DNA of 64,000 bases from Anaerolineales bacterium (GTDB taxonomy: Bacteria > Chloroflexota > Anaerolineae > Anaerolineales > E44-bin32): contig DAOULU010000037.1 of NCBI GenBank assembly GCA_034417075.1, positions 41,915 to 105,914 on the forward strand, written 5' to 3'. Below the pieces are notes generated by a model. It worked only from the letters and a program-made list of their open reading frames with translations, had not been told where the DNA came from and ran no database searches. Positions 1 to 61,113 of the stretch are shown in pieces (the first letter of the stretch is position 1; each line of letters starts with the position of its first letter). Made by a program: the position numbers and the translations under genes.

Positions 1-1274
1 TGTGGGCGTTCCCTCTTGTTTTAATACTCTATGTAGTTTCCTCGCAAGCTTTTATATTTAGTTATTCCGGAGCAATGTCCGAGCCATTGTTCTTTCTACT
101 TTCCATTGCGAGTATCTTCTTTCTCCAAGCATTTTTTATGTCAAATAGTAAAAAGCATTTCATAATCGCTTGTATTCTTACTAGTGCGGTTTTCCTGACT
201 CGATATATTGGGATTGCAGTTGTGTTGTCGGGTGGTTTAGCACTGTTAATTTTTTCTCGGGGCAAATTTATAGAAAGATTCAAGACCTCAGCACTTTATC
301 TTACGATTTCATCTTTTCCATTTTTACTTTTTATCGTAAGTATGTTGGCTCGTGGAGATACACCCGGAATCTATCAATCATTTGATCAATCGCTGTGGCA
401 TGAATTAAATCCGGTCAGGGTTGCGATCGCTGATGAAATATGGACCGGATTTCATTTCGATAATCTATTTCCTTGGTCTCAATATCGCTTGAAAATATTA
501 CTTATAATTTGCTGTCTTCTTGTATTGTTGTTTTTTATAGCGCGTTGTGTCCGCTTGCAGAAAAAGCGGAATGATTTCGACATTCATCGAGAATTTTTTT
601 TCCAGGGCGGGGTGATATTCGCTTCAGTAGCCACCTTTTCCGTAACCGTTATTGCGATAACGTATGTTATCGTTCGTGCTCCTCAACCAGCATTGATAGA
701 ACGGGTTCTCCTACCTATCGTCTATAGTTCCATTTTCTCCATTATTTCTTTTCTTTGTTATCTTTCAATTCATAGTAAGAAACGAAGGATCTTTTTTAAT
801 ATTCTTTTGTTATTCCTTGCCAGTAATATTATTGTTGGTAATATCCCGAGCAGTTGGAGCCTCATTCATGATTTACATGAGAAAGGATATGGATTATCAA
901 CCCCAAGCTGGCGAAGTTCAGATGTTATTGCTGCCGTGAAAGATTTACCCAATGATGTTCCATTAATTACCAACGATGCGGCTGCAATTCATTATTATAC
1001 AGGTAGGCCACCTTATGAAATTCATGAGGTGTTTAATAAATCTGCACCCGATATTCAATATAAATACGGAGATAATTTAGATGACAATCGTAATTTACTG
1101 TTTCGTAATGAAGGAGCAGCGCTCGTCTTATTCCGTAATGTGAAATGGCAGCTTTGGATATTATACGAAGATCGGACGCCCGAGATTTTGGAAACGCTGA
1201 CAACAGGTTTGTACCTCTATTATCAGGGATGGGATGGAAATATCTATTTCTATAATGAATTTCCTCCGGAGTAA
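1..1274 (+). CDS. GT-C-like (ArnT/PMT-type) polytopic membrane glycosyltransferase, 5'-truncated by the window edge
   Basis: The frame is open from the window start (WAFPLVLILYVVSSQAFIFSYSGAMSEPLF...). Many TM segments, SEPLF and TRYIG motifs, soluble C-terminus. Co-linear similarity to the ORF at 23886-25520. Confidence 0.6.
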   Translation, partial: WAFPLVLILYVVSSQAFIFSYSGAMSEPLFFLLSIASIFFLQAFFMSNSKKHFIIACILTSAVFLTRYIGIAVVLSGGLALLIFSRGKFIERFKTSALYLTISSFPFLLFIVSMLARGDTPGIYQSFDQSLWHELNPVRVAIADEIWTGFHFDNLFPWSQYRLKILLIICCLLVLLFFIARCVRLQKKRNDFDIHREFFFQGGVIFASVATFSVTVIAITYVIVRAPQPALIERVLLPIVYSSIFSIISFLCYLSIHSKKRRIFFNILLLFLASNIIVGNIPSSWSLIHDLHEKGYGLSTPSWRSSDVIAAVKDLPNDVPLITNDAAAIHYYTGRPPYEIHEVFNKSAPDIQYKYGDNLDDNRNLLFRNEGAALVLFRNVKWQLWILYEDRTPEILETLTTGLYLYYQGWDGNIYFYNEFPPE

Positions 1275-1745
1275 TCGATGAGAGCGTACTTCATTAGCAA
1301 AGTCGGCCAGAATCGTTCAGCGATTCATAGTAGATTGCCGTGCGGATCGTGCTGTATCGTGATTGTCTGATTAGATTAAGTTGCGAGGGTCGATAAATCC
1401 TTCAAGGTAAGAATTATCCGATGATCTCCTTAGAATTCGATCTTGGCTTCAGCGCAGTGTATGTGGAGCAACTTGGCCAGCTTCAATTTTGTTAGTGCAT
1501 GATGATTCTGGCGATTCTTCGAAAACGAAAAAAGCTGGTTATAGGAACCGAAATGGGCATCTAATTACGCATGGAATTTTTTATTATGAACCTGCAAACC
1601 GATTTGCGGGCAAGTAGGTGTTTCAAAAAAGATTATTTGCAGCAAATAGAAGAGAATGGAAAATGCATCATGAATGTCGAGATTATCCCTAGCAAAATGA
1701 AACCTCAACCATGCTTCGTATCGAGGCTTTCTTACAGGTTGAATC

Positions 1746-2660
1746 ATGCCTGATACGACCCTGCTCTGGGATGCCGTAAACCTTTGTGCATTATGCGGAA
1801 GTACCGTAGCTAACCATATCGAGTTTTCGGAACTAATGGATCATGGTGTAACCCTGACCTATTCGTTATGTACAAAATGTGGATTGGTATTCCAATCTCC
1901 CATGATGAGTCAAGCGTCGCTTGATCGGTTTTATGTGGAGCAGTATCGTAAAACCGTTCAGGAATCGGAGGGACCGACGGATAAAGATCTTCGCGTGCAA
2001 ACCGGACGGGCAAGGGCCTTGTCACAATTCGTTCACCGGGATGTCATTGAAATTCGGCGCCTTCTCGATATCGGCAGTTCTGCAGGTATGCTGCTGGAAA
2101 GGTTTCGGGCGGACTTCGGTTGTGAGAGTGTGGGGATCGAACCGGGTGACATTTACCGCGCCTACGCGATGGATAGAAATCTGTGTGTGTTCCCCAATCT
2201 CGAGACGCTGGAAGCGCAGGACGAAGCAGCCTTCGATCTGGTCTCGATGTCACACGTGTTGGAGCATCTCCCTGATCCGCTGGCGTATTTGATCCATCTG
2301 CGCCGGCGCTGGGTTGCTCCGGACGGATGGGTTTTAATCGAGGTCCCCAACCTGTACGGACACCAGACATTCGAACTGGCGCACCTGTATGCGTACACAG
2401 CAGCGACGCTGCGAGAGTTCTTACGGCAGGCGGGTTTCGAAGTCCTGCGGTTGCGCAGCCATGGCAGACCCCGATCCCGGCTCATCCCGTTGTATCTTAC
2501 GGCGCTTGCCCGGCCTCGTTCCGATGAATCTGCCTCGGGACGAATTCGCTCGGGGAGTTTCGGCGTTCGATCGCGCCGACGGCTGGGTATGCTCTGGCGT
2601 CGCATCGCCACAAAGTTCTTCGCCAGGTGGGCGTGGCTGCCCTGGCCTGCGCTCGAGTGA
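1746..2660 (+). CDS. Class I SAM-dependent methyltransferase with N-terminal Zn-ribbon (probable sugar O-methyltransferase)
   Basis: CxxC...CxxC (CALC, CTKC), motif I LLDIGSSAG, HVLEHLPDP, VLIEVPN. Confidence 0.8.
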   Translation: MPDTTLLWDAVNLCALCGSTVANHIEFSELMDHGVTLTYSLCTKCGLVFQSPMMSQASLDRFYVEQYRKTVQESEGPTDKDLRVQTGRARALSQFVHRDVIEIRRLLDIGSSAGMLLERFRADFGCESVGIEPGDIYRAYAMDRNLCVFPNLETLEAQDEAAFDLVSMSHVLEHLPDPLAYLIHLRRRWVAPDGWVLIEVPNLYGHQTFELAHLYAYTAATLREFLRQAGFEVLRLRSHGRPRSRLIPLYLTALARPRSDESASGRIRSGSFGVRSRRRLGMLWRRIATKFFARWAWLPWPALE

Positions 2661-2713
2661 CGGGGCGAAGAGGTCACGATCATGAATCGAGCCGAGGAAG
2701 ACCAGCTATAAAA

Positions 2714-4312
2714 ATGAATCGTAAATTCTACTTCCCCATCACACTTTCGATGTATCCCGTACTTTCACTTCTAGCGACCAACATCGCGCAGGTGGAGTTA
2801 TTGGACGCGATGCGTTCTTTGGTCGTATCCATTCTGCTCGCATGCATTGTCTATGCATTGTTCTGGATTTGGCTCCGAGATACCTTGCGCGCTGCTGTAT
2901 TATCGACATATACATTAATTCTTTTTTTCAGCTATGGACACGTTTATGCATTGATCGAGAATCTAACTCTGTTTTCATACAACATTGGTAGACATCGATA
3001 TCTGCTACTTGCGTGGGTATTGCTGTTCGTCGTCGGATTTATTTGGGTAAAGAGATCTCCACGATTTTTTATCGAGAGTAGTGGGATAATAAATATTGCT
3101 TGCATTTTCATAGTTTCGATTCCGATCCTCAGGATCATCTCATTTGAGATTGGCTCGGCCAATTCTGCTATCGGTGAAGAAAATGAAGAGCAATATGAAT
3201 TCGAAAGGGTCAATATATCGAGCGACATTAGTGTTTCAGAGATCGATACATTCCCCGATATCTATTACATCATATTGGACATGTACACTCGTGGAGATAT
3301 TCTTGAAAGCAAACTAGATTATGATAACTCCCCCTTTTTAAACAATCTCGAACAATTAGGTTTCTACGTGGCATCATGCAGCTATAGCAACTATGGAAAC
3401 ACCGTTCTCTCGCTAGGTTCAAGTTTGAATTTAGATTATTTCCAGAATCTAGTACGGGAATATAACGACACAATCAGTCCATACAAGTATGGCAAACTTG
3501 TGAAGGATAACCAGCTGCGGAATATCCTAAAAAATCTTGGCTATCAAATTATTGCTTTTGAATCAGGCTTTTCTCCTACGGAATGGGACAATGCAGACAA
3601 ATATTTAGCGCCTATAAAGAATATAGTCTTCGGTGGTTTGAATACGTTTGAAAGTATGTTTATAAGGACGACGTTGGGTGTATTCCTTTTCGAGATTCGT
3701 GACTATCTACCCGTGTATATTGCAGAAGGGTTGGACGGCGCATACTTCCAGCATCGGGAACGAATTTTATTTACACTGGATGAAATCGAAAACGTACCAA
3801 GTTTTCCCGGACCTAAATTTGTGTTTGTCCACATCCTTGCTCCTCATAACCCATTTGCATTTGGGCGAAACGGCGAGCCTGTTCGAAGAAATTTCTTCTT
3901 TACGTTGAATAAAGATAGAGATAGTGATACCTGGGATGAATTTGCTCCAGGATACATCGATCAGGTCATATTTCTAAATACACGTATGATTGGAATCATA
4001 AGGCGTATATTGGAGGTTTCAGATCCACAACCCATCATCATTATTCAAGGTGATCACGGGATACCTCGGATGTCTGAACCAGATGAAAGATTCGCGATAT
4101 TAAATGCATATTACTTCGCAGGGCTTTCGAATACGGGTTTATATTCCAACATTTCTCCCGTAAACACTTTTCGGCTCGTACTAACTAACTTATTGGGTAC
4201 GAAGTTTGACCTCTTGGATGACAAGAGTTATTACACACCTCAAGGTCATTCACCTTTGGATTTTGAAGAAATACCTGCGATTGTAAATCCATGTTTATCA
4301 GGGCAAAACTAG
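2714..4312 (+). CDS. Membrane-anchored alkaline-phosphatase/sulfatase-superfamily protein (LtaS/EptA-like fold)
   Basis: About five N-terminal TM helices, then DIYYIILDMY, YGNTVLSLGSSLN, HILAPHNPF and IQGDHG metal-site-like motifs. Start placed at ATG 2714 (MNRKFY). Confidence 0.7.
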   Translation: MNRKFYFPITLSMYPVLSLLATNIAQVELLDAMRSLVVSILLACIVYALFWIWLRDTLRAAVLSTYTLILFFSYGHVYALIENLTLFSYNIGRHRYLLLAWVLLFVVGFIWVKRSPRFFIESSGIINIACIFIVSIPILRIISFEIGSANSAIGEENEEQYEFERVNISSDISVSEIDTFPDIYYIILDMYTRGDILESKLDYDNSPFLNNLEQLGFYVASCSYSNYGNTVLSLGSSLNLDYFQNLVREYNDTISPYKYGKLVKDNQLRNILKNLGYQIIAFESGFSPTEWDNADKYLAPIKNIVFGGLNTFESMFIRTTLGVFLFEIRDYLPVYIAEGLDGAYFQHRERILFTLDEIENVPSFPGPKFVFVHILAPHNPFAFGRNGEPVRRNFFFTLNKDRDSDTWDEFAPGYIDQVIFLNTRMIGIIRRILEVSDPQPIIIIQGDHGIPRMSEPDERFAILNAYYFAGLSNTGLYSNISPVNTFRLVLTNLLGTKFDLLDDKSYYTPQGHSPLDFEEIPAIVNPCLSGQN

Positions 4313-4365
4313 AAATGGCTTTTTACTCACGACAAAGGTCATGTAAAGAGGTTGTATAACAGGCG

Positions 4366-5364
4366 ATGCGATTCTTGATAAGTGGGCTGGGCTCGATCGG
4401 CCGAAGGCATTTGAAGAATCTCACCGCTCTGGGGCAGAGCGACATCGTCTTGCACCGAACGGGTAAGAGCACGCTGCCCGACGACGAACTCGTCAGATAC
4501 CCAGCGGAAAGTGATTTGAATGCGGCGCTCGAGCGCTGGTCTCCGGATGCGGTGATCGTATCCAATCCCACCGCCTTGCATCTCAAAGTCGCAATTCCCG
4601 CTGCGCGGGCAGGCTGTTCGCTCTTGTTGGAAAAACCGATTTCCCACACGCTGGATGGCATGGACGAGCTTTGGGCAGCACTCGAGGCGGGAGGCGGAAA
4701 CGTTCTTGTCGGCTTTCAGTTCCGCTTCCATCCGGGCTTGCAGTACGTGGCTCGGCTCCTGCGTGAGCACGCCATCGGAAACCCAATCAGCGTGCGGGCG
4801 CACTGGGGTGAATACCTGCCTGGATGGCATCCCTGGGAGGATTACCGTGAGTCCTATAGCGCACGCCGCGATATGGGCGGCGGTGTCCTGCTGACGCTCT
4901 GTCACCCCTTCGATTACCTGCGTTGGTTGTTCGGCGAGGTCTCATCGTTGTTCGCATCTGCAGGGAAATTCGGGGAGCTCGATCTTGACGTCGAAGACAC
5001 GGCAGCAGTTCTGCTTTCACTTGAGGGCAATGTCCTCGGCGTGGTCTACCTCGATTACAATCAGCAGCCTGCCAGTCACTGGCTGGAAATCAGCGGCACA
5101 CGAGGCAGCATCCGTTGGGACAACGCGGACGGTGCGGTTCGCTGGTGGACCACGAAGAAGCGGGAGTGGGAAACGTATTTCCCTGCGGATGGTTTCCAAA
5201 GGAACAATTTGTTCCTGGAGGAGATGCGGCATTTTATCGACGTCGTTCGCGGTGAAGCCCAACCGCGGTGCACCCTCGAGGACGGGATCCGGGCATTGAA
5301 GATCGTTTTGGCGGCGAAACGCTCTGCAGCACAATCCGGGAAGGTGGATCTGGAAATTGGCTAA
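4366..5364 (+). CDS. Gfo/Idh/MocA-family oxidoreductase
   Basis: GLGSIGRRH, NPTALH, LLEKP, GGGVLLTLCHPFD. Confidence 0.9.
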   Translation: MRFLISGLGSIGRRHLKNLTALGQSDIVLHRTGKSTLPDDELVRYPAESDLNAALERWSPDAVIVSNPTALHLKVAIPAARAGCSLLLEKPISHTLDGMDELWAALEAGGGNVLVGFQFRFHPGLQYVARLLREHAIGNPISVRAHWGEYLPGWHPWEDYRESYSARRDMGGGVLLTLCHPFDYLRWLFGEVSSLFASAGKFGELDLDVEDTAAVLLSLEGNVLGVVYLDYNQQPASHWLEISGTRGSIRWDNADGAVRWWTTKKREWETYFPADGFQRNNLFLEEMRHFIDVVRGEAQPRCTLEDGIRALKIVLAAKRSAAQSGKVDLEIG

Positions 5365-5404
5365 GTCAACGCTGCTTGAGGAGGAAATTACGCAGAATGC
5401 CGGG

Positions 5405-5413
5405 TGTTATAAT
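5405..5413 (+). promoter_or_regulatory. Extended -10 promoter element (TGTTATAAT) upstream of the SDR-neuA-neuB genes
   Basis: Perfect TGn-TATAAT in the intergenic gap 5365-5542. Confidence 0.5.
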
Positions 5414-5542
5414 CTTCGAACTGTTTTCCAGTCGAGTAGCTTGAAAGAGCGGTTTGATGGACAGGATAAACTCATATGAATGGCTCGATGTTGAAAAAAC
5501 GAGGACAGGGGAATCAATTTGCCTCCCAGCGGGTGGTGACGA

Positions 5543-6364
5543 ATGAGTGAGTTGCCCGCATCCTTCGATCTGTCCGGGAAAGTGGCCGTCGTTACCGGTT
5601 CCGCCGGATTGCTCGGATCCGGTTTTTGCCACACACTGGCCGAAGCGGGTGCGACGGTGGTCCTGGCAGACAACAACGTCGGGGCGAACGAAAATCTGGC
5701 GGATAAGCTGGGCGAGGCAGGTTTCGCCGTTCTCGCTGTGAAATGCGACATCACCGATCCCCATTCAGTCGAAGCGCTGGTGCAGCAGACGCTGCAGCGC
5801 TATGGTCGTCTCGATATCCTGGTCAACAGCGCCGCACTGGATCCCAAATTCGACCCGGAACATCAGGACGAGCACTCCAGCAGCTTCGAGAAGTACGCGC
5901 TCGAGGATTGGAACCAGGCATTGAACGTCAACCTGACCGGGATGTTTTTGGTCACACAGGCAGTTGTCCGGCCGATGCTCGATCAGCGGGATGGCGCAAT
6001 CGTCAACATCTGTTCGACCTACGGGCTCGTGGCGCCGGATCAACGCATCTACCAGCGAGAAGGCCGAGCGCAGGGGTACAAACCGGTATATTACTCGGTC
6101 ACGAAAGCCGGGGTATTGGGTTTCACGCGCTACCTGGCGGGCTACTACGCTGGCAAGAACATCCGCGTCAACGCGCTGACGCCCGGCGGCGTGTACAACC
6201 AGCACGATGAGGCTTTTGTCGAGCAGTACGCCGCACGGACGATGTTGGGACGGATGGCAGACCGTTCGGAAATGAATTCGGCGCTGCTTTTCCTGGCGTC
6301 CGACGCTTCATCGTACATGACGGGTGCGAACTTGGTCGTCGATGGGGGTTGGACGGCATGGTGA
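5543..6364 (+). CDS. SDR oxidoreductase (PtmA/ElaC-like, NulO-cluster associated)
   Basis: TGSAGLLG, NSAA, YSVTK catalytic YxxxK, IRVNALTPGGV, NLVVDGG. Overlaps the neuA start. Confidence 0.85.
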   Translation: MSELPASFDLSGKVAVVTGSAGLLGSGFCHTLAEAGATVVLADNNVGANENLADKLGEAGFAVLAVKCDITDPHSVEALVQQTLQRYGRLDILVNSAALDPKFDPEHQDEHSSSFEKYALEDWNQALNVNLTGMFLVTQAVVRPMLDQRDGAIVNICSTYGLVAPDQRIYQREGRAQGYKPVYYSVTKAGVLGFTRYLAGYYAGKNIRVNALTPGGVYNQHDEAFVEQYAARTMLGRMADRSEMNSALLFLASDASSYMTGANLVVDGGWTAW

Positions 6365-7587
6365 ATAAAGCGGAAGTTTTAGCGATCGTCCCTGCACGGG
6401 CGGGCTCGAAATCCATACCGAAGAAGAACGTACGTCTCTTTGCCGGGCACCCTCTGCTCGCCTACAGCATCGCTGCGGGTCTGCAAGCGGAATATGTTTC
6501 GCGCGTGATCGTCTCCACGGACGACGAAGATTTTGCCGAGATCGCCCGCAGTTACGGGGCGGAAGTTCCTTTTCTGCGGCCGGCGAAGTTCGCTGGTGAT
6601 AACGTCACCGATCTGCCGGTCTTCGAGCATGCCTTGAATTGGTTGCAGGAGGAGGAAAACTACCGGCCGGATGTGGTCGTACAGCTGCGGCCGACGTCTC
6701 CCATTCGCCCGCGCGATTGTGTGGACCGGGCGGTTGAAATCTTGCTCGAAAATCCTCGGGCGGACTCCGTGCGTGGGGTCGTCCCTTCCGGCCAGAATCC
6801 GTACAAAATGTGGCGCTTGACGGACAACGGCGTCATGGAAACTCTGCTGAAGGATGCTGGCGAGGAATCCTACAACAAACCGCGTCAGGAGCTTCCATCG
6901 ACCTACTGGCAGACCGGCCACATCGACGCCATCCGCACAGAGACGATACTCGAGAAGAAATCGATAAGCGGGGATACGATCCTACCGTTGCTGCTCGATG
7001 CAAAGTACACCGTCGACATCGACACGCTCGAAGACTGGCGGCGGGCGGAATACACCTTGATGCACGGCGATCTCGAAGCAGTCTTTCCCGGCCGCAAACC
7101 GAGGCCCTTCCCTCCGACTGTAACCATGGTCGTCATGGATTTCGACGGCGTGTTGACCGACAACCGGGTCTGGGTGGATGGTGAGGGCAACGAGTGGGTG
7201 GCGGCCAATCGTGGGGACGGCTGGGGAATCGCACGTTTGAAAGAGCGTGGCGTTCAGGTCGTCGTTCTCTCGACGGAATCTCACCCTGTGGTGACTGCAC
7301 GCTGCCGCAAACTCGGCATTAATGTGAAGCAGAATCTCGCCGACAAAGCATCTGCCATGAGGGCACTGCTCGAAGAGAGCGGCGTGGATCCTGCGGAGGT
7401 GGTTTTCCTGGGGAACGATGTAAACGACGTCGCCTGTTTTCCGCTCGTGGCATGCGCACTCGCTGTCTCCGATGCCCACACTGACGCTCGTCGGGCGGCG
7501 GACCTGGTGCTCCAGAACCCCGGCGGACACGGGGCTGTGCGAGAACTCTGCGACATGGTGATCCATCAGATGGATGAGGTGTCTTGA
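6358..7587 (+). CDS. neuA: Acylneuraminate cytidylyltransferase fused to a C-terminal KdsC-like HAD phosphatase
   Basis: PARAGSKSIPKKN, QLRPTSP. C-terminal MDFDGVLTD (HAD motif I), LSTE, FLGNDVND, GGHGAVRE. Confidence 0.9.
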   Translation: MVNKAEVLAIVPARAGSKSIPKKNVRLFAGHPLLAYSIAAGLQAEYVSRVIVSTDDEDFAEIARSYGAEVPFLRPAKFAGDNVTDLPVFEHALNWLQEEENYRPDVVVQLRPTSPIRPRDCVDRAVEILLENPRADSVRGVVPSGQNPYKMWRLTDNGVMETLLKDAGEESYNKPRQELPSTYWQTGHIDAIRTETILEKKSISGDTILPLLLDAKYTVDIDTLEDWRRAEYTLMHGDLEAVFPGRKPRPFPPTVTMVVMDFDGVLTDNRVWVDGEGNEWVAANRGDGWGIARLKERGVQVVVLSTESHPVVTARCRKLGINVKQNLADKASAMRALLEESGVDPAEVVFLGNDVNDVACFPLVACALAVSDAHTDARRAADLVLQNPGGHGAVRELCDMVIHQMDEVS

Positions 7588-7588
7588 T

Positions 7589-8464
7589 ATGCCCAGAGAG
7601 ATACGGATTGGCAAGCGGCACATCGGTGAAGGTTATCCGACCTACATCGTGTCGGAAATCGGCATCAACCACAACGGCGAACTTTCCACCACCAAGGCGC
7701 TGATCGACGCCGCGAAGAATGCCGGCGTGGATGCGGTTAAATTCCAGAAGCGCACACCGGATTTATGCGTTCCTGCGGAGCAGCGGGATCAGATGCGAGA
7801 CACGCCATGGGGATATATCTCGTATCTCGATTACCGCCATCGGATTGAATTCGACGAAGAAGAATACCGCGAGATCGACTCCTATTGTAAATCTCTCGAT
7901 CTCACCTGGTTCGCCTCGGCTTGGGATGAACCTTCGGTGGATTTTCTGGAAAAGTTCGACCCCGTTTGTATCAAAATCCCTTCCGCGGCGTTGACCGACC
8001 ACGCGCTTTTAAAACACATCCGGAAAGCCGCCAAACCGGTGATCTTGTCGACCGGGATGTCCACGATGGAGCAGATTCAAGCCGCCGTCGATGTCCTGGG
8101 CACGGATGATTTACTCATCACGCACGCCACGAGTTCCTATCCCTGTGATCCGAACGATCTGAATTTGAAAGTGATCCCGGCGCTTCTGGATGCTTTTCCC
8201 TGTCCGATCGGTTATTCCGGACACGAAGTGGGCTTGGTGCCGTCTGTGGTGGCCGTGGCCATGGGCGCTTGTTTGGTCGAGCGGCACATCACGCTGGATC
8301 GGGCCATGTGGGGATCCGACCAGGCGGCTTCCGTCGAACCGGGTGGGTTTCGGCGGCTGGTCAAATACATCCGCGTCACTGAGGAAGCCCTTGGGGATGG
8401 GGTTAAACGGGTGTATGACAGTGAATTGACCTCCATGCAGAAACTGCGGCGCGTCGGTGGTTAA
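7589..8464 (+). CDS. neuB: N-acetylneuraminate/KDN-9-phosphate synthase family protein (no C-terminal SAF/AFP domain)
   Basis: EIGINHNG, VKFQKRTP, HATSSYP, IGYSGHE, VERHITLD, GSDQAAS. Ends shortly after the TIM barrel. Confidence 0.9.
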   Translation: MPREIRIGKRHIGEGYPTYIVSEIGINHNGELSTTKALIDAAKNAGVDAVKFQKRTPDLCVPAEQRDQMRDTPWGYISYLDYRHRIEFDEEEYREIDSYCKSLDLTWFASAWDEPSVDFLEKFDPVCIKIPSAALTDHALLKHIRKAAKPVILSTGMSTMEQIQAAVDVLGTDDLLITHATSSYPCDPNDLNLKVIPALLDAFPCPIGYSGHEVGLVPSVVAVAMGACLVERHITLDRAMWGSDQAASVEPGGFRRLVKYIRVTEEALGDGVKRVYDSELTSMQKLRRVGG

Positions 8465-10114
8465 ATGAGTCTTCCTTTTCGTTGGCTGCGATCGGCGGCC
8501 TTTCAACTTCGCTGTTGGATAGAATCCATTCGTCAAGGGCCAAGGCTTCGGCAATTGCGAAGCGAAATTGAAGCATCGGCGTCTGGCGATGAGAGCGACA
8601 ATCGCCCCGTGCTCTTCTTCAATGCTTCGACGCGAACGTGGGGGGTGAGTCAGAACGCGGCGTTCAGCTTGTTGGCATCCTGGGGATTTCGTTTAAGCGG
8701 TGTATCGGTCCGCTATTTAGCCTGCATGCGCGGCATGCAGCAGTGCATGCTAGGTACCAATCGTAAGCGCCTGGGTGCAGTGCCTCCGTGTAAATCCTGC
8801 ATGCGCCTCAGCAGACAAATGTATCCAGAGGATCTACTCGATAAGATCGAGGCTCCCAGCAAGGGATGGAACACACTGCCCGATTTCTCCGAACACGGGA
8901 CACTCGCATCTCTATTCGAAGTGGAATATCTCGGATTGAAAATCGGTGAACTTTGTCTGCCCTCTCTGCGCTGGGTGCTGCGTAGGCATAACATTCCCGA
9001 CACCGCGGAAATTCGTGCCTTGTACAAGAAATATCTTCGCTCTGCAATCCATGTCGCGCTGGTTTTTATACAGACCATTGAACGAACGCCACCACGAGCT
9101 GTTATCGTATTTAACGGAATCACATTCCCGGAAGCGGTCGTGCGTCAAATCGCCATCGAACGAGGAATTCCCGTTATCACCCACGAGGTGGGGGTACGAC
9201 CGTTTTCCGCTTTTTTTACTCACGGTGAAGCGACGGCGTACCCTATTGAAATAGCGGATGATTTCCGCCTAATGCCTGAAGAACATGCTCGTCTGGAAGC
9301 TCTCCTTTCCGCTCGATTCCAGGGCGATTTTTCGATGGCGGGGATCCGTTTTTGGCCAGAAATGCGCGCTTTGAGCGAAACATTGAAGGCAAAGTTGGAG
9401 AGCTATGATCAGTGTGTAGCCGTGTTTACAAACGTAATATTCGATACGAGCCAAGTGCATGCGAATGTGATTTTCGATGACATGTTTGCCTGGTTGGAGC
9501 AGGTCGTCCATTTCGCGGGGAGGCATCCTCGTACGCTGTTCGTCATCCGTGCCCATCCCGATGAACTGCGCACTGGAAAAGAAGCACATGAAACTGTCGC
9601 AGAAGTGCTCTCACAAACGAATGCTGCTGCGATGGAGAACGTGGTATTTATCCCTTCGCAAGAGTTCGTGAGTTCGTACGATTTGATTCGGCGCTCCAAA
9701 CTCGTGATGGTCTATAATTCATCCATCGGGTTGGAGGCCACACTGCTTAAGCGTGTTGTTTTGTGTGGTGGGGCTTCAAGATATTCTCGTTATCCAACGG
9801 TGTATTTTCCGGAAACGGCGCAGATATATTTCCAAATGGCAGATAAATTCATTCATGAGGACGATCCCAAACCGCCACAATCGTTCGTCGATGAGGCTGA
9901 GCGTTTCTACTACGTCCAGCATTTTCTGACTTCACTGGATTATTCACCTTATTTACGTCCCCACAAAACATTCCCGGGATACGTTACTTTCTCGGATTTT
10001 GATGTAAACATGCTGCATCCGATTCATTGCCGTGAGAATGCGATCATCGAGCGTGGCATTCAGTCCAATACGGAAATGTTTTACGATCGAAGTGATGTCA
10101 CTGTTAAAAGTTGA
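8465..10114 (+). CDS. KpsS/KpsC-like capsule-synthesis protein (candidate ulosonic-acid transferase)
   Basis: FVIRAHPDE and VYNSSIGLEA motifs typical of Capsule_synth proteins. Directly abuts neuB. Confidence 0.65.
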   Translation: MSLPFRWLRSAAFQLRCWIESIRQGPRLRQLRSEIEASASGDESDNRPVLFFNASTRTWGVSQNAAFSLLASWGFRLSGVSVRYLACMRGMQQCMLGTNRKRLGAVPPCKSCMRLSRQMYPEDLLDKIEAPSKGWNTLPDFSEHGTLASLFEVEYLGLKIGELCLPSLRWVLRRHNIPDTAEIRALYKKYLRSAIHVALVFIQTIERTPPRAVIVFNGITFPEAVVRQIAIERGIPVITHEVGVRPFSAFFTHGEATAYPIEIADDFRLMPEEHARLEALLSARFQGDFSMAGIRFWPEMRALSETLKAKLESYDQCVAVFTNVIFDTSQVHANVIFDDMFAWLEQVVHFAGRHPRTLFVIRAHPDELRTGKEAHETVAEVLSQTNAAAMENVVFIPSQEFVSSYDLIRRSKLVMVYNSSIGLEATLLKRVVLCGGASRYSRYPTVYFPETAQIYFQMADKFIHEDDPKPPQSFVDEAERFYYVQHFLTSLDYSPYLRPHKTFPGYVTFSDFDVNMLHPIHCRENAIIERGIQSNTEMFYDRSDVTVKS

Positions 10115-10212
10115 TCTGAAACGAACGGGAACGGACGGGACGTATGAGGAGCTCCGTGTGTGTTAGTATTGCTGGTCTCGTTCGCTGAAAGTACAGCATA
10201 CTGCAAGGTGAG

Positions 10213-11037
10213 ATGGCCGTGATCTCCATAAAGCAATTCATCAAAAGGATGACACCCACCGCGCTGTGGCGCCCGATTTCCAACCTGTACTGGTACTGGT
10301 ACAACCGTGGACGCCATCAGTTGGCCGCGGCGGTCAGCGTTCGCCGCCGGAAGGATGCGGGACGCTTGCGGTCGTTTCATGATCAATATTCGGGGCGGCG
10401 CTGCTTTGTGATTGGAAACGGGCCCAGCCTGCGCGAGACCGATCTGAGTTTTCTGCGCGACGAAATTACCTTCGGCGCGAATCGCCTCTATCTGAACTTT
10501 CCCGAGATGGGCTTCACGAGCACCTTTCTGGTGATCACCAACATCCTCGTCGTCGAACAATGTGCCCGCGATTTGAAGGCCTTGACCATCCCGAAGTTCA
10601 TCACCTGGCGCGCCAGAAAGTGGATGAAGGACGATGCGCGCACGATATTCCTGGATACCGATTACACCCTGCCCGAAACGTTCGCGCAGGACGTTTCCGG
10701 AAGGGTGTACGAAGGAAACACGGTGACGTACACATCGCTCCAATTAGCCTATCACATGGGGTTTTCGAAAGTGATCCTCATCGGCGTGGATCATCATTAC
10801 GACACGAAAGGTCCTGCGAATACGGTCGTGGTTTCGCAAGGGGAGGACCCCAATCACTTTCATCCCGATTATTTCGGCAAGGGCTTTCGTTGGCAGCTTC
10901 CCGATCTGGTCGGTTCCGAGCGGGCTTACAAAATGGCCGGGGAGAACTTCGCCCGAGATGGTCGAGAAATCCTCGACGCCACCATCGACGGCCGGCTGAC
11001 GATCTTCCCCAAGGTAAAATATGAAGATCTATTTTAA
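10213..11037 (+). CDS. DUF115/MAF_flag10 (MptE-like) protein, candidate NulO transferase
   Basis: CFVIGNGPSL, FGANR, GNTVTYTSLQLAYHMGFSKVILIGVDH, PNHFHPDYFG. Confidence 0.75.
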   Translation: MAVISIKQFIKRMTPTALWRPISNLYWYWYNRGRHQLAAAVSVRRRKDAGRLRSFHDQYSGRRCFVIGNGPSLRETDLSFLRDEITFGANRLYLNFPEMGFTSTFLVITNILVVEQCARDLKALTIPKFITWRARKWMKDDARTIFLDTDYTLPETFAQDVSGRVYEGNTVTYTSLQLAYHMGFSKVILIGVDHHYDTKGPANTVVVSQGEDPNHFHPDYFGKGFRWQLPDLVGSERAYKMAGENFARDGREILDATIDGRLTIFPKVKYEDLF

Positions 11038-11094
11038 CTTCGATCGTTTAACACGTCTGGCGCTCGTAAGATTTCAACCGGGGCGGGAAGCGTA

Positions 11095-12048
11095 ATGACC
11101 GAAAACCATCCGCGATGTTCGATCGTCATCCGCGCCTTTAATGAGGAGAAACATATCGGGCGTTTGCTCACCGGCATCATGCACCAGACCGCCGAAAAAG
11201 TAGAAATCGTCCTGGTCGACTCCGGCTCGCGCGACGCAACGGTGGCAATCGCTTCCCGTTATCCGGTCAAGATCGTGCACATCCGGCCCGAGGAATTTAC
11301 TTTCGGGCGTTCCCTCAATCGCGGTATCGAGCATACGACTTCGGAATTCGTCGTCATCGCCAGCGCTCACGTGTATCCCGTATTTCCGGATTGGCTGGAA
11401 AGACTGTTGGCGCCGTTCGAAAATCCACGCGTCGCAATGGTCTATGGCAAGCAGCGCGGCATTGAGTCCACTCACTTCAGCGAGCAGCAGCATTTTGCCA
11501 AGTTGTTCCCGGCTGAAAGCATCGCCGTCCAACGTCATCCGTTCTGCAACAACGCCAATTCGGTCGTTCGCCGATCGTTGTGGCTCCAGAACCGTTTCGA
11601 CGAGGAGTTGACCGGTCTGGAAGACATGGCCTGGGCAAATTGGGCCATCCAGCAGAATCACGTTTTGTCCTATGCGGCGGAGGCGGAAGTGATTCACGTG
11701 CATAATGAAACCTCACGCCAGGTTTACAACCGCTACCGGCGGGAGGCGATCGCCTTGCGGCGGATCAAAGTGGAGGAACGTTTCCACCTCGGAGATTTCC
11801 TGCGTCTATATCTCTCGAACGTGATGAGCGACGGGTGGCACGCGCTGCGTGAGCGGGTGTTCTTGAGGGAAGCGCGCGGCATTCTCAGATACCGTCTCAT
11901 GCAGTTTTGGGGTACGTATCGCGGTTTTTCGTTATCTAAGCCCGTGTCGGCTTCCATGAAGCAGGTTTTCTATTACCCGCGCGGTTTTCGTGCTGCCACC
12001 ATCAAGCCGCAGCGGGATGTAGAGCCGATCGATTATCAGAGCGTTTGA
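11095..12048 (+). CDS. GT2 glycosyltransferase
   Basis: SIVIRAFNEE, VLVDSGSRD, FCNNANS, LEDMAWA. The DXD position is degenerate (IASAH). Confidence 0.85.
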   Translation: MTENHPRCSIVIRAFNEEKHIGRLLTGIMHQTAEKVEIVLVDSGSRDATVAIASRYPVKIVHIRPEEFTFGRSLNRGIEHTTSEFVVIASAHVYPVFPDWLERLLAPFENPRVAMVYGKQRGIESTHFSEQQHFAKLFPAESIAVQRHPFCNNANSVVRRSLWLQNRFDEELTGLEDMAWANWAIQQNHVLSYAAEAEVIHVHNETSRQVYNRYRREAIALRRIKVEERFHLGDFLRLYLSNVMSDGWHALRERVFLREARGILRYRLMQFWGTYRGFSLSKPVSASMKQVFYYPRGFRAATIKPQRDVEPIDYQSV

Positions 12049-12129
12049 CGGCCGGATGACTACTCCGGCCTGGTCGTTCGCCGCCTGGGTCGATAAAATC
12101 AGGGCAGTTGAGGTTAAGGATCGCAGAAC

Positions 12130-12828
12130 ATGATGGCTGAAGAGAAAATTGTGGCCCTGGTTCCGATGCGGCATCATTCGGAACGAGTGCCCGAGAAAAA
12201 TTTCCGCCTTTTGGCCGGAAAGCCGCTCTACGCTCACATTCTCGAGACGCTGCACGCGTGTCCCGAAATTGGGCAAATTCTCGTCGATACCGACAGCCCG
12301 GTAATCGTCAGCGGGATTGCGGAACGATTTCCGGATGTTCTACTCATCGATCGCCCGGAGCACCTGCGGGCCGATGATGTGCCGATGAACGACGTGCTGC
12401 TTCATGATGTTTCGCAATGTGAGGCGGAGTTTTATCTTCAGACCCACAGCACCAATCCTTTGCTGCGTGCAAGGACCATTTCGGATGCAATTACGACCTT
12501 CAGAAAGGGTCTCCCGCAGCACGATTCGCTTTTTTCCGTTACCAGGTTGCAGACGCGTCTCTGGGACGTCGATGGAAAACCCATCAACCACGATCCGTCT
12601 GTTTTACTGCGAACACAGGACCTCACACCAGTGTACGAAGAAAATTCCTGCATATACATCTTTCAACGATCCATCTTCATCGATCGTGAGAACCGAATTG
12701 GTCACACGCCAACGATGTTCGAAATCGACGGCGAAGAAGCATGGGACATCGATGAGGAACTCGATTTCTTGATTGCGGACCGTTTGATGCAGGAACGATT
12801 ACGTTCACAATCGGAGAAGAACAAATGA
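12130..12828 (+). CDS. Second acylneuraminate/CMP-Kdo-type cytidylyltransferase
   Basis: VPMRHHSERVPEKNFR, THSTNPLL, YEENSCIYIF, WDIDEELDF. Confidence 0.85.
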   Translation: MMAEEKIVALVPMRHHSERVPEKNFRLLAGKPLYAHILETLHACPEIGQILVDTDSPVIVSGIAERFPDVLLIDRPEHLRADDVPMNDVLLHDVSQCEAEFYLQTHSTNPLLRARTISDAITTFRKGLPQHDSLFSVTRLQTRLWDVDGKPINHDPSVLLRTQDLTPVYEENSCIYIFQRSIFIDRENRIGHTPTMFEIDGEEAWDIDEELDFLIADRLMQERLRSQSEKNK

Positions 12829-13790
12829 CGATCCGCGTACTCGTATCCGCGCCCTACATGCTCCCACACCTCGATCGTTTCAGGCCGATTTTCGAACGAA
12901 GCGGCATCGAACTAGTGACCCCCGAAGTCGTTGAACGTCTCTCGGAAGAGGAGCTGCTCCAACTGGTCGGAGAGATCGATGGGGCGATTTGCGGTGATGA
13001 TCGCTTCACGCCTCGGGTGCTGCAAGCGGCCGTGCCCCGCCTGAAAGTCATCTCGAAGTGGGGAACGGGGATCGATTCGATCGACAAGCAAGCGGCGCAG
13101 CAGCTCGGCATCCGGGTTTATAACACCCCGGGCGCTTTCGCGGATCCGGTCTCGGACACCGTCATGGGCTACGTCCTCAACTTTGCCCGCCGGCTGCCTT
13201 GGATGGATCGAAACATGAAGCAGGGCAAATGGGAAAAGCTGCCGGCGAGATCGCTGCGAGAATGTGTGTTAGGCGTGGTGGGAGTGGGCAACTGCGGCAA
13301 AGCCGTACTGCGGCGAGCGCGGGGATTCGGTATGGGTTTGCTGGGGAACGACATCCTGGAAATTCCACAGGCGTTCATCGATGAGGTGGGCGTGACGATG
13401 ATGGATCTCGAAGCGTTGCTGCCCCAGGTGGATTTCCTGAGCTTGAACTGCGACCTGAATCCGACTTCGTTCCATTTGCTGACCCGGGAGCGGTTACGGC
13501 TTCTGCCCTCCACCGCCGTCGTGATCAACACCTCGCGCGGCCCGGTGATCGACGAGCAGGCGTTGGTCGAGGCGCTGCGTGAAGGATGGATCAGCGGCGC
13601 CGCATTGGACGTTTTCGAGGATGAACCCCTGGCGGCGGATCATCCGCTGCGTTCGATGGATCAGGTGATGCTGGGATCTCACAATGCAAACAGCAGTCTT
13701 GCCGCCTGGGAGCGGGTGCATAAAAATACGATCCGCAATCTCTTCGAGGGACTGGGGATTTCACCGCCGGAAGACCTGGATCGGATTTGA
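12825..13790 (+). CDS. D-isomer-specific 2-hydroxyacid dehydrogenase (phosphoglycerate dehydrogenase-like)
   Basis: KWGTGIDSID, GVVGVGNCG, INTSRG, AALDVFEDEP, LGSHNA. ATGA overlap with the upstream gene. Confidence 0.85.
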   Translation: MTIRVLVSAPYMLPHLDRFRPIFERSGIELVTPEVVERLSEEELLQLVGEIDGAICGDDRFTPRVLQAAVPRLKVISKWGTGIDSIDKQAAQQLGIRVYNTPGAFADPVSDTVMGYVLNFARRLPWMDRNMKQGKWEKLPARSLRECVLGVVGVGNCGKAVLRRARGFGMGLLGNDILEIPQAFIDEVGVTMMDLEALLPQVDFLSLNCDLNPTSFHLLTRERLRLLPSTAVVINTSRGPVIDEQALVEALREGWISGAALDVFEDEPLAADHPLRSMDQVMLGSHNANSSLAAWERVHKNTIRNLFEGLGISPPEDLDRI

Positions 13791-13819
13791 GGTGAACCGG
13801 GTATGAAAAGGAGAACCCT

Positions 13820-14566
13820 ATGAAGCGCGTGGCGATCATCACAGGCGCAGCAGGCGGTATCGGCCGGGCAACGGCAGAAACGTTCCACGCTGCCGGATAT
13901 GAAGCGGTCGGCATCGATCGCAAAGAAGTGAAAGACTTCCCGGACGACATTCGCCTGTATAAAGTCGACTCATCCTTGGAAGAAAGCGTCTCGGCGTTTG
14001 CCGTACGCATGCGCGAGCAGCATCAGAAGATCGATGTGCTGGTCAACAATGCCGCAATCCAAATCTGCAAACCCATCGTCGAGATGACGGTAGAAGAATG
14101 GGATGCCACGATGGCATCGAATCTGCGCTCGATCTTTCTCATGAGCCGCGAATTGTATCCGCTGATCAAGGCGGCAAGGGGTTCGATCGTCAACGTAAGC
14201 TCCGTCCACGCCATGGCGACGTCGAACGACATCGCCGCCTACGCGGCCAGCAAAGGCGGTATCCTGGCGCTGACCCGTGCGATGGCGCTCGAATTCGGAC
14301 TCGATGACGTGCGCGTGAATACGATCCTGCCCGGTGCGGTAGATACGCCCATGCTGCGGGACGGTATGAGCCGCGGGCATGTTTCCGGAACGCTGGAAGA
14401 GCGCATGCAAGCGTTGGCGGCAAAAACGGTTTTGGGGCGAATCGGTAAACCGGAGGAAATCGCGAAAGTCATCCTCTTCTTGGCGGATGGCGGGCAATCC
14501 GGATTCATGACCGGACAGTCACTGATTGTGGATGGCGGCGCTTCGGCAAGATTGAGCACGGAGTGA
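13820..14566 (+). CDS. SDR oxidoreductase
   Basis: TGAAGGIG, VNNAA, NVSS, YAASK, VRVNTILPG, LIVDGG. Confidence 0.9.
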   Translation: MKRVAIITGAAGGIGRATAETFHAAGYEAVGIDRKEVKDFPDDIRLYKVDSSLEESVSAFAVRMREQHQKIDVLVNNAAIQICKPIVEMTVEEWDATMASNLRSIFLMSRELYPLIKAARGSIVNVSSVHAMATSNDIAAYAASKGGILALTRAMALEFGLDDVRVNTILPGAVDTPMLRDGMSRGHVSGTLEERMQALAAKTVLGRIGKPEEIAKVILFLADGGQSGFMTGQSLIVDGGASARLSTE

Positions 14567-14599
14567 TATTGTAGAGGTTTTTTTCCTCAGGAGGTTTTA

Positions 14600-16528: not shown

Positions 16529-16543
16529 TCGATCGACGGGCGG

Positions 16544-16552
16544 TGCTATAAT
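16544..16552 (+). promoter_or_regulatory. Extended -10 promoter element (TGCTATAAT) upstream of the GT2 at 16668
   Basis: Perfect TGn-TATAAT immediately after the upstream stop codon. Confidence 0.5.
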
Positions 16553-16667
16553 TTGTCCCTGGATGGTCGATCCCTTCGATGAATGATAATTCTATGACGT
16601 ATGGATGTTTGTTGAAGAGGCATTCGATTTCAGAGCCCTCATTGATGATATTCATGAGTTCAAGACC

Positions 16668-25915: not shown

Positions 25916-27661
<1,746 letters not shown>

Positions 27662-32853: not shown

Positions 32854-32972
32854 GTCCACGTTCCATTATTGATATTGATGTAGGGGTTGGGTCTACATTA
32901 TCCTGTTTTGGGTCAGTTAGGGATGAAACGTATTTTTCTTTCTCACTTGATCTCCTCTAAAACCAACAGGAA

Positions 32973-33434
32973 TTAGATAATTAAGTAATAAATAAGATCA
33001 TCTACGTCTTCATCTGGTTCATTTCGAACAAAACCCATACTTTCGTATAAGTGCTTGGCAATGGTATTCCTTGGGTTTACTTTTAACATCATTTTAATCG
33101 CCCCACGATATCTACAAATGGATTTTGATATCTCAATTGAGCATTTACCTAACCCCAAGCCTCGATGTGTCTCCGAAATTACAACGCCGTAAGCTGGGAC
33201 ATTAAATCCCTCATCCCACCCTCGCAGCATGAAGAAACCGACAAGTTCGTCTTCCAGGAAGAATCCTTGAAACACATCCTTTTGACGATTCTGAAGAATT
33301 GATACGATGGAGTTTTCTGTAAATTCGAAGGGCGTGAAATATTGAAGGTACTCGGGAGATTGTGATTGAAGCATCGACGAGAGCGCCGCGGCGTCTTCCG
33401 ATTTCAACGGCCGCATACTGAGCGCACTGTTCAT
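32973..33434 (-). CDS. GNAT N-acyltransferase
   Basis: HRGLGLG acyl-CoA motif, NTIAKHLYESMGF. TAATG overlap with the aminotransferase. Confidence 0.8.
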   Translation of the reverse strand: MNSALSMRPLKSEDAAALSSMLQSQSPEYLQYFTPFEFTENSIVSILQNRQKDVFQGFFLEDELVGFFMLRGWDEGFNVPAYGVVISETHRGLGLGKCSIEISKSICRYRGAIKMMLKVNPRNTIAKHLYESMGFVRNEPDEDVDDLIYYLII

Positions 33435-61104: not shown

Positions 61105-61113
61105 CGTTCATTC

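Follow-up and report, generated by a model that had tools for sequence, protein, structure and literature searches.

Organisation of the locus

The DNA analysed here is a stretch of 64,000 nucleotides (nt) of contig DAOULU010000037.1 from an uncultured Anaerolineales bacterium; the whole of this stretch is called the window, and it is the part of the genome covered by the analysis. At 4366-8464, the list of open reading frames (ORFs) and profile scans revealed four plus-strand genes encoding a Gfo/Idh/MocA oxidoreductase (Gfo), a short-chain dehydrogenase/reductase (SDR1), a fusion of a NeuA domain with a HAD domain (NeuA-HAD) and a SAF-less NeuB-family synthase (Table 1), which together are candidates for the biosynthesis of a nonulosonic acid. 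An initial annotation of this DNA had named these features, and all of them were found where it had placed them, including the motifs GYSGHE, ERHITLD and KFQK in NeuB and DFDGVLTD in the HAD domain. Its claim that the SDR gene overlaps neuA was likewise correct: the stop of SDR1 overlaps the neuA start by 16 nt if the ORF is read from 6349 and by 7 nt if it is read from 6358. The latter start is used by the gene caller and is probably the right one; the ORF (6349-7587) encodes 409-412 amino acids (aa), 409 of them from 6358. NeuA-HAD ends at 7587, NeuB starts at 7589 in the relatives and in the public gene call, and the gene for a Capsule_synth protein starts one base past the neuB stop. A promoter and terminator scan of 2400-16800 gave counts no higher than in shuffled sequences and no informative site. 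With neighbouring genes that touch or overlap and terminator signals no stronger than chance, the four genes are most likely the core of a co-directional glycan operon of at least ten genes. The four-gene frame of the initial annotation is right in that all four genes are present but too narrow, since the conserved unit adds two candidate transferases and a second trio resembling the ElaABC set of Acinetobacter baumannii.

A Pfam scan of all ORFs of at least 180 aa in the window revealed neither a UDP-GlcNAc 2-epimerase (NeuC/LegG) nor a PseB/C/G/H/I or LegB/H/I set, in agreement with the earlier statement that neuC, leg and pse genes are missing from the window; the same was found in three relatives with Pfam-annotated genes. 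A GNE-like source of N-acetylmannosamine 6-phosphate (ManNAc-6-P) was not in sight near the cluster.

Table 1 Features of the gene block, with the core genes first, and their presence in 21 distinct Anaerolineae-clade loci
Feature	Position	Strand	Evidence	Present in Anaerolineae-clade loci
Gfo/Idh/MocA oxidoreductase (Gfo), 332 aa	4366..5364	+	PF01408, PF02894, PF22725, E 4e-22 to 2e-12	14/21 in total; 12/12 with >=9.9 kb upstream
SDR1, classical SDR with elongated substrate loop, 273 aa	5543..6364	+	adh_short_C2, E 6e-52	19/21; both exceptions are contig ends
NeuA domain, predicted CMP-ulosonic acid synthetase	6349..7083	+	PF02348, E 1e-18	20/21
C-terminal KdsC-like HAD domain, predicted nonulosonate-9-phosphate phosphatase	7111..7587	+	KdsC/KDN-9-P phosphatase models, E 1e-32 to 2e-23	21/21
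SAF-less NeuB-family synthase, 291 aa	7589..8464 (ORF from 7574)	+	PF03102, E 1e-78	
Capsule_synth (KpsS/KpsC-like) protein, candidate CMP-ulosonic acid transferase	8465..10114	+	PF05159, E 7e-8, above cut-off	17/21
MptE-like/DUF115 protein, second candidate transferase	10213..11037	+	PF01973, E 7e-12	
GT2 glycosyltransferase	11095..12048	+	PF00535, E 3e-24; 50-58% identical in relatives	
CTP2, second NeuA/PseF-like cytidylyltransferase, 232 aa	12130..12828	+	PF02348, E 2e-25	12/21
D-2-hydroxyacid dehydrogenase family protein	12825..13790	+	PF02826, PF00389; overlaps CTP2 by 4 nt	
SDR2, second SDR, 248 aa	13820..14566	+	PF13561, E 1e-54; only 24-37% identical to SDR1-type enzymes	
Sulfatase/LTA-synthase-like membrane protein	2627..4312	+	PF00884, E 3e-4, below cut-off, weak	

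The SAF-less synthase groups with NANS and Kdn-9-phosphate synthase

The true start of NeuB is probably the methionine M6 at 7589, which gives 291 aa, as in all relatives. The barrel is followed by only ~10 residues, and a SAF domain, which in NeuB/NnaB supplies Arg314 to the sugar site, was not found in the window protein. Its scores of 257.2 bits against TIGR03569 (the NeuB/NnaB equivalog) and 210.9 bits against TIGR03586 (PseI) were below the respective cut-offs of 399.65 and 340.25. In BLASTP searches the closest reference was human NANS (194 bits, 36% identity), followed at 122-134 bits by Leptospira 6ncs, the ketodeoxynonulosonic acid (Kdn) 9-phosphate synthase of Prymnesium parvum, SpsE, PseI and the NeuB of Neisseria meningitidis; identity to the P. 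parvum enzyme was only 31%. The reference sequences of human NANS and N. meningitidis NeuB were verified to be exact and that of the SAF-less P. parvum synthase was taken from the supplement of PMC6200933, where the enzyme is described as strictly specific for mannose 6-phosphate (Man-6-P).

A neighbour-joining tree was calculated from 49 sequences and ~290 columns with 200 bootstraps. The family of the window NeuB was monophyletic in 93.5% of the replicates, and in 188 of 200 (94%) it grouped together with human NANS and the P. parvum Kdn-9-P synthase, leaving N. meningitidis NeuB, SpsE, PseI (8h2c), Leptospira 6ncs and a SAF-containing paralogue from a related locus outside. The NeuB phylogeny that the initial annotation had called for thus places the enzyme, in a tree without BT1714 and LegI, with NANS and the P. 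parvum enzyme and not with NeuB, PseI or SpsE. This grouping is mirrored by a signature, KFQK, (Y/F)SGH and G(S/T)D(H/Q)(A/S)AS(L/V)EP, defined in this analysis on few sequences, which is common to the window family, NANS and the P. parvum enzyme and absent from the five other references; the SGH position reads SDH in the non-phosphate-type references. The Leptospira SAF-less NeuB (6ncs) was considered as a member of the same family and rejected, as it lacks the signature and lies outside the clade.

Residue E134 of N. meningitidis NeuB is listed as potentially catalytic (PMC8208679). At the corresponding position NANS has Asp and the P. parvum enzyme Ser, where the window protein has Ala (PSAALTD, residues 132-138, window 7970-7990); five close relatives have Ser (PSASLTD), in agreement with the family-wide consensus, and the LTD that follows is conserved. 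An acidic residue is missing at this position in the whole family, which has Ala or Ser. Judged by its sequence, the window NeuB is a NANS/Kdn-9-P-synthase-like enzyme and not a classical NeuB, LegI or PseI. SAF-less NeuBs of environmental bacteria had already been noted, without an assigned function, and the eukaryotic NanS branch contained no bacterial sequence (both PMC8208679).

More than 8000 relatives of the window NeuB are present in the databases. The best 120 are 72-88% identical, nearly all have 289-298 aa, most of them exactly 291, and where named they stem from Anaerolineae or Anaerolineales metagenome-assembled genomes (MAGs); the identical protein occurs in one NCBI record and one Logan assembly. 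For a comparison of gene neighbourhoods, a signature-based scan of one genome per GTDB species gave 80 loci whose NeuB is 53-75% identical, to which Methylomagnum, Hymenobacter and Nonomuraea were added from the plasmid collection (two plasmids and a record of genome size). All loci were translated and searched with the window proteins and Pfam.

A KdsC-like putative phosphatase domain is fused to NeuA

The N-terminal domain of NeuA-HAD reached 170 bits against the PseF model, under the cut-off of 206, and its PDB matches include 9ftb and 6ifd (both 2e-31) and the N-domain of murine CMAS (1qwj, 2e-16). The HAD domain matched 3mmz (7e-40), a protein of Streptomyces avermitilis, many KdsC entries (~1e-23), BT1713 (3e81, 3e-20) and the C-domain of murine CMAS (3ewi, 3e-18). 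Since the two halves match 1qwj and 3ewi, the CMAS-like architecture claimed before was recovered, and so was the intact DxD (DFDGVLTD). The HAD domain stays under the curated cut-offs of TIGR01670 (96.2 versus 106.95 bits), NF058599 (83.1 versus 180 bits) and NF007019 (110.2 versus 208 bits). Motifs I-III are canonical, and DFDGVLTD, STE, DK and GNDVND are conserved in all NeuA-fused relatives.

A HAD homologue was present in 70 of the 83 related loci and located at most 400 nt from neuB in 58 of them. A phosphorylated, Kdn-type route is well supported by these sequence data, because the NeuB clade and signature, the conservation of HAD motifs I-IV among the relatives, the position of HAD near neuB in the relatives and the lack of a NeuC in the window all point to it.

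Two oxidoreductases resemble the Ela enzymes

In A. baumannii, ElaA (Gfo/Idh/MocA; K91, H181), ElaB (a CTP-transferase) and ElaC (an SDR with an elongated loop; Y168, K172) are required for a capsule containing 8-epi-legionaminic acid (PMC13656337). Their structures were phased with 3EZY, 6IFD and 6UH2, respectively; ElaA was crystallised only with NADP+ and ElaC with NAD+, and the scheme proposed for them rests on genetics, crystal structures and docking, not on enzymology (PMC13656337). The nearest PDB relatives of the window Gfo, NeuA and SDR1 include the same three entries, 3EZY, 6IFD and 6UH2, at or near the top of the matches; Ela structures themselves were not among the PDB matches of Gfo and SDR1.

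Gfo carries the Lys of an EKP motif (K90) and a His (H180) that match K91 and H181 of ElaA, and lacks an acidic residue after beta2 (HRTGKS). Its best PDB matches were 2glx, a 1,5-anhydro-D-fructose reductase and as such an NADPH-dependent sugar ketoreductase, and 3ezy. For SDR1, 6uh2 was the joint-best PDB match, with a common 13-residue loop insert. Among 50 orthologues, Y184/K188 and the Asp that follows beta2 (Asp43) show conservation of at least 95%. The trio that had been likened to Ela and Ptm enzymes is indeed present in one locus, with a Gfo containing Lys and His, an elongated-loop SDR and an adjacent NeuA, and has the same PDB relatives as ElaA, ElaB and ElaC. As to the "PtmA-like SDR" of the initial annotation, SDR1 is a classical SDR whose gene overlaps neuA; its score against NF006619 (201.2 bits) does not reach the cut-off of 255.

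We propose that SDR1 is an NAD+-dependent dehydrogenase making a keto intermediate and Gfo the NADPH-type ketoreductase half of a tailoring pair. The oxidising role is assigned to SDR1 because it is the constant partner of the synthase and stands, in the type II clusters described below, beside an aminotransferase, which needs a carbonyl. The direction rests on the Asp after beta2, which fits NAD+, on the HRTGKS sequence and the 2glx relative of Gfo, and on the NADP+ and NAD+ found with ElaA and ElaC. This suggests an oxidation by SDR1 and a reduction by Gfo, opposite to what has been published for Ela.

Three architectures across many phyla

The 80 loci stem from Chloroflexota, Planctomycetota, Gemmatimonadota, Bacteroidota, Ignavibacteriota, Chlorobiota, Myxococcota, Acidobacteriota, Actinomycetota, Verrucomicrobiota and Melainabacteria, a Candidate Phyla Radiation (CPR) lineage, Methylococcaceae and an archaeon. 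Within the Anaerolineae clade (Table 1), Gfo orthologues of more than 440 bits were found in the 12 loci with long upstream flanks, except for L012, in which the gene is split in two. By these searches, the module is conserved in every assessable Anaerolineae locus.

Three architectures were distinguished. Type I consists of NeuA-HAD and NeuB and occurs in Microbacterium, Nesterenkonia and some Acidobacteriota and Myxococcota. Type II (L025-L058, L068-L073 and L085; for example L033:4491-11672) was found in Hymenobacter, Mucilaginibacter, Puia, Ignavibacteria, Polyangiaceae and Methylococcaceae; these clusters begin with CTP_transf_3 and a conserved ~350-aa protein, continue with a split transketolase, a class-III aminotransferase and an SDR, usually followed by a stand-alone HAD, and end with NeuB and a fatty-acid-hydroxylase-family protein. 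The same order is present on the annotated Methylomagnum plasmid NZ_AP019784 (163-173 kb). The type II SDR is 45-52% identical to SDR1 and the type II NeuB 55-62% identical to that of the window. To judge from its gene content, type II would seem to lead to an amino-ulosonic acid without drawing on nucleotide-hexosamines; we found no description of such a cluster. Type III, consisting of Gfo, SDR1, NeuA-HAD and NeuB, comprises loci of Anaerolineae, among them the window, of a Pirellulales MAG and of two Bacteroidota; in one of the latter, SDR1 was not detected.

SDR1 orthologues with 45-67% identity adjoin the NeuB clade in many phyla. The SDR-associated NeuBs of types II and III form one clade (83% neighbour-joining bootstrap) nested within type-I-like loci; the type III NeuBs of Anaerolineae and Pirellulales form a clade of their own (86.5% bootstrap) and the two type III proteins of Bacteroidota lie at the base of the type II clade. 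Across the three types, 88 of 291 NeuB positions are invariant, including all active-site motifs, and only two positions are fixed and different between types II and III. Identical NeuB motifs in all types suggest that the same aldose is used and hence that tailoring takes place after condensation. In this comparison the SDR, and not the pair, is the conserved add-on to the NeuB clade. As a pair of genes, the "epimerising redox pair" of the initial annotation holds for Anaerolineae, whose loci contain both SDR1 and Gfo; as a general unit it does not, since the conserved partner is the SDR alone and an aminotransferase replaces Gfo in other phyla. With the aminotransferase in place of Gfo, a probable keto intermediate appears to have two or more fates, of which the redox pair represents one.

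Individual loci have further features. Downstream of the type II cluster on the Methylomagnum plasmid (L085:10501-13563) lie three genes that hint at an aminolipid; they encode LplT, a GNAT N-acyltransferase and a lysophospholipid acyltransferase. A role of type II clusters as general aminolipid loci was rejected, as none of the other loci, of type II or not, has these genes, except for an LplT homologue in a short Methylococcaceae contig (L044). In L009, L010 and L012 the main neuB is preceded, ~3.7-6.5 kb upstream, by the gene of another phosphate-type NeuB, a paralogue with 55-57% identity to the window protein, and these three and L061 have an extra NeuA without HAD directly upstream of the NeuA-HAD gene; the sole NeuB of L061 groups with the paralogues of the other three in the tree. 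These duplications point to duplicated pathways in one locus. L001 has a SAF-containing NeuB, accompanied by a separate cytidylyltransferase, a GT4 and an epimerase/dehydratase (508-3484), ~7 kb upstream of the phosphate-type cluster, and so, as predicted from its genes, carries two nonulosonic acid pathways side by side. In the Microbacterium locus L064 a distant Gfo/Idh/MocA-domain ORF (6613-8505) lies directly upstream of NeuA-HAD, so some apparently plain type I clusters may include a redox step; a DUF6716 "putative glycosyltransferase" (10321-12189) is encoded downstream of its NeuB. A 2.6-kb contig binned as "Porphyromonadaceae" (L022) has a NeuB nested in the Anaerolineales clade and is probably mis-binned.

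Proposed pathway and alternative explanations

Domain content, NeuB clade membership, catalytic motifs (intact but for the Asn in HAD motif IV) and conserved synteny were observed; all substrates and products, the redox order and the roles of the transferases are inferred. In the pathway that we propose, the SAF-less NeuB would condense phosphoenolpyruvate (PEP) with a hexose 6-phosphate, most likely Man-6-P, to a 9-phospho-nonulosonate (Kdn-9-P); Man-6-P is preferred to ManNAc-6-P solely for want of a potential source of the latter among the nearby genes. The 9-phosphate would be removed by the C-terminal HAD domain of NeuA-HAD and the CMP-sugar made by its N-terminal NeuA domain. These three steps are drawn from the known NANS/Kdn pathways together with the sequence evidence. 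SDR1, with its NAD-type Asp after beta2, would oxidise one secondary hydroxyl, be it of the free sugar, the 9-phosphate or the CMP-sugar, to a ketone, which Gfo would reduce from the other face to give a Kdn epimer; by analogy with Ela, the epimerised carbon would be C8. The product would be installed by the KpsS/C-like and/or the MptE-like transferase. That the operon, with its phosphate-type NeuB, HAD and NeuA followed by SDR1/Gfo tailoring, makes a Kdn epimer is in our judgement evenly balanced between right and wrong, and a new nonulosonic acid is plausible but unproven.

A broader proposal is possible, although we hold it only tentatively: a hitherto unrecognised family of NANS-like, SAF-less nonulosonate-9-phosphate synthases across many phyla would make a common product, probably Kdn, that is diversified via an SDR-made keto intermediate. 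Gfo would turn the latter into an undescribed epimer in Anaerolineae and some Planctomycetota and Bacteroidota, whereas in many Bacteroidota, Ignavibacteriota, Myxococcota and Methylococcaceae a class-III aminotransferase would convert it, without recourse to UDP- or GDP-hexosamines, into an amino-nonulosonic acid. The keto intermediate is proposed because the type II SDR sits between the class-III aminotransferase and HAD/NeuB.

Several points weigh against the formation of a Kdn epimer by these enzymes. Motif IV of the HAD domain, GNDVND (window 7450-7470), has Asn where E. coli KdsC has its Mg ligand, Asp125, and the homologous HAD domain of murine CMAS is reportedly catalytically inactive. 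The GNDVND variant is, however, invariant in NeuA-fused relatives across phyla and present in 3mmz, while stand-alone HADs beside the same NeuB family have GDD; this strict conservation argues for a function of the predicted phosphatase. The tree behind the NeuB assignment had seven non-family references, five of them non-phosphate-type, and BT1714 and Campylobacter jejuni LegI were left out. The best of 224 SDR models for SDR1 was NF006619/PRK09186, the PtmA-type "flagellin modification protein A" model, listed in the tool only as "oxidoreductase", with a score below its cut-off, and SDR1 scored equally well against FabG. Cofactor and step-order assignments follow sequence rules of thumb. Finally, in some relatives as much as 8.7 kb separates the Gfo gene from SDR1, so that the two enzymes need not act on the same substrate, and basal members of the family, such as that of Microbacterium, have no SDR1, indicating that the redox enzymes are dispensable for making the CMP-sugar.

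The last two points, together with the many other sugar-modifying genes in the window, favour a plain CMP-Kdn or CMP-N-acetylneuraminic acid (CMP-Neu5Ac) pathway, for which NeuA-HAD and NeuB suffice in the basal members, while the target of Gfo and SDR1 is a different sugar of the polymer or something unrelated. We regard this as unlikely: SDR1 overlaps neuA, its orthologue occurs in the same loci as the NeuB subclade across phyla and beside HAD/NeuB in the loci examined, and the NeuB tree tracks the presence of the SDR at the bootstrap value given above. The redox enzymes could also work before condensation, altering the hexose 6-phosphate so that NeuB condenses a non-manno hexose-6-P and the stereochemistry is set at C5-C8. 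Gfo/Idh/MocA enzymes that act on sugar 6-phosphates are known (NtdC on glucose 6-phosphate), as is the logic of an oxidoreductase, an aminotransferase, a HAD and a split transketolase from the early steps to 3-amino-5-hydroxybenzoic acid (AHBA), and type II clusters do contain a split transketolase and a HAD. Three different aldoses are hard to square with substrate-site motifs that are the same in all three types of NeuB and with only 2 of 291 positions fixed and different between types II and III, which makes such remodelling improbable.

Slightly more improbable still is an end product that is not an epimer, be it a keto-nonulosonic acid or, if Gfo oxidises further, a lactone or dicarboxylic (ulosaric) acid. 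In its favour, the two redox steps have only a proposed order and direction, and the second trio of CTP2, 2-hydroxyacid dehydrogenase and SDR2 brings more redox chemistry to the locus; on the other side, the closest precedent, ElaABC, is tied to an epimer by the glycan structure, and the best PDB relative of Gfo, 2glx, is an NADPH-dependent reductase. A legionaminic- or pseudaminic-type pathway, with leg or pse genes elsewhere in the genome feeding NeuB, would agree with the first description of Gfo, SDR and CMP-transferase trios in Leg clusters and with the second, SAF-containing NeuB near the cluster in L001. The latter has its own cytidylyltransferase and dehydratase, though, the window NeuB groups with NANS and Kdn-9-P synthase and not with PseI or SpsE, a dedicated predicted phosphatase is fused to NeuA and the window has no leg or pse genes; a pathway of this type is highly improbable.

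Downstream genes and the surrounding glycan region

The Capsule_synth protein showed a weak match to the BFO_1060 glycosyltransferase family and had no relative in the PDB sequence search. The MptE-like/DUF115 domain is that of Maf-type nonulosonic acid transferases, and the protein travels with the second trio in relatives. CTP2 matched 9t4z, "PpNeuA" (3e-13), and 6ifd (2e-11) in the PDB; the nearest models of the D-2-hydroxyacid dehydrogenase were glyoxylate reductase and PGDH, far under their cut-offs. CTP2, this dehydrogenase and SDR2 co-occur in relatives. The locus has, in total, two sets of a cytidylyltransferase with two oxidoreductases and two candidate ulosonic-acid transferases. The second Ela-like set (10213-14566) is present as a block in ~12 of 21 Anaerolineae loci, and only one NeuB is encoded in the window; one possibility is that the second CMP-transferase serves a second isomer from the same precursor. 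The membrane protein at 2627-4312 adjoins Gfo upstream, has homologues with 33-38% identity in 4 related loci and is possibly part of a polymer assembly machinery.

Almost the whole window (1-64000) is made up of surface-glycan genes (GT2, GT4, ABC-2 exporter, Wzy-like, Bac_transf, PglF-like), with a FemAB pair at 59986-62133. The GC content is mosaic, 0.40-0.47 at 1-4 kb and 30-46 kb and 0.52-0.58 at 4-16 kb and 48-62 kb. On the minus strand of this large glycan region, a fused ATP sulfurylase/APS kinase (25916-27661) and a Sulfotransfer_2 protein (39581-40831) suggest a sulfated polysaccharide. A DegT aminotransferase at 33434-34567 (minus strand), 25 kb from the cluster, had the LegC family as its best model (374 bits, cut-off 420) and was considered as a hidden leg gene. 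This was rejected, since its neighbour is a GDP-mannose 4,6-dehydratase (Gmd) and not LegB; the pair (31876-34567, minus strand) probably serves GDP-perosamine synthesis.

Significance and comparison with known systems

Nonulosonic acids are usually predicted from neuB/legI/pseI phylogeny, and to our knowledge only a handful of stereoisomers are known, nearly all of them from pathogens. The locus would put an "animal-type", phosphate-dependent route into abundant environmental bacteria, namely Anaerolineae of sludge and sediment, Bacteroidota, Ignavibacteriota, Actinomycetota and Myxococcota, and would link it with tailoring of a modular kind. A new Kdn epimer, if that is what is made, would widen the chemical space of sialic-acid-like sugars, offer new CMP-sugar donors and transferases and provide a test case for the unproven two-enzyme epimerisation of the Ela type with a simpler sugar that has no N-acyl groups; if the product is plain Kdn, the finding shrinks to a new bacterial clade of a known pathway. 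As cultured carriers exist (Hymenobacter, Microbacterium, Methylomagnum, Nonomuraea), the question is directly testable. In the open-access literature we found no report on nonulosonic acid biosynthesis in Anaerolineae or Chloroflexi.

With the vertebrate NANS-NANP-CMAS route the system shares a NeuB whose nearest reference is human NANS, the motifs KFQK, GYSGHE and ERHITLD...GSDxxASxEP, and the two-domain layout of CMAS. Unlike NANS, the window NeuB has no SAF/AFP domain and the family has Ala or Ser in place of the Asp at the E134 position; the phosphatase domain is fused to NeuA instead of being a separate NANP, and there are additional redox enzymes. The Kdn pathways of Bacteroides thetaiotaomicron (BT1714/BT1713) and P. 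parvum (Kdn-9-P synthase, CMP-Kdn synthetase) likewise use a hexose-6-P and PEP, a KdsC-type phosphatase and CMP activation, and the P. parvum synthase is also SAF-less, with SGH and Ser at the E134 position. They differ in that neither has an SDR or Gfo partner, and the window HAD reaches 83 bits where the BT1713 equivalog cut-off is 180.

Compared by the described residues and the shared PDB relatives, ElaABC of A. baumannii KL49, with homologues in Vibrio vulnificus and PtmF/PtmA/PtmB in Campylobacter, is the same kind of trio with the catalytic Lys/His and Tyr/Lys at matching positions. The Ela enzymes, which have hydrophobic pockets for N-acetyl groups, belong to a legionaminic context with lga genes and a 5,7-diacetamido sugar, whereas the window and the related loci L001-L003 have no leg genes beside this NeuB and a phosphate-type synthase. 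The Kdn-containing teichulosonic acids of Streptomyces and other actinomycetes are phosphate-free Kdn polymers on a monoderm wall. Possible links to them are the GNDVND motif in 3mmz, the best PDB relative of the HAD domain, and the presence of the same NeuB family in Microbacterium, Nesterenkonia and Nonomuraea; the actinobacterial loci examined differ from the window in having no SDR1. The closest analogue of clusters with an SDR and an aminotransferase is the Kdo8N pathway of Shewanella, in which the oxidase KdnB and the aminotransferase KdnA tailor a ulosonic acid through an oxidised intermediate. It differs in its enzymes, which belong to the iron-dependent alcohol dehydrogenase (Fe-ADH) and sugar aminotransferase families, in its eight-carbon sugar and in oxidation at the terminal carbon. 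In sum, the logic of the pathway is known and the combination, the clade and the possible product are new: by its genes, the system appears to work like the phosphate-dependent pathway of vertebrates, B. thetaiotaomicron and Prymnesium, joined to an Ela-like tailoring cassette.

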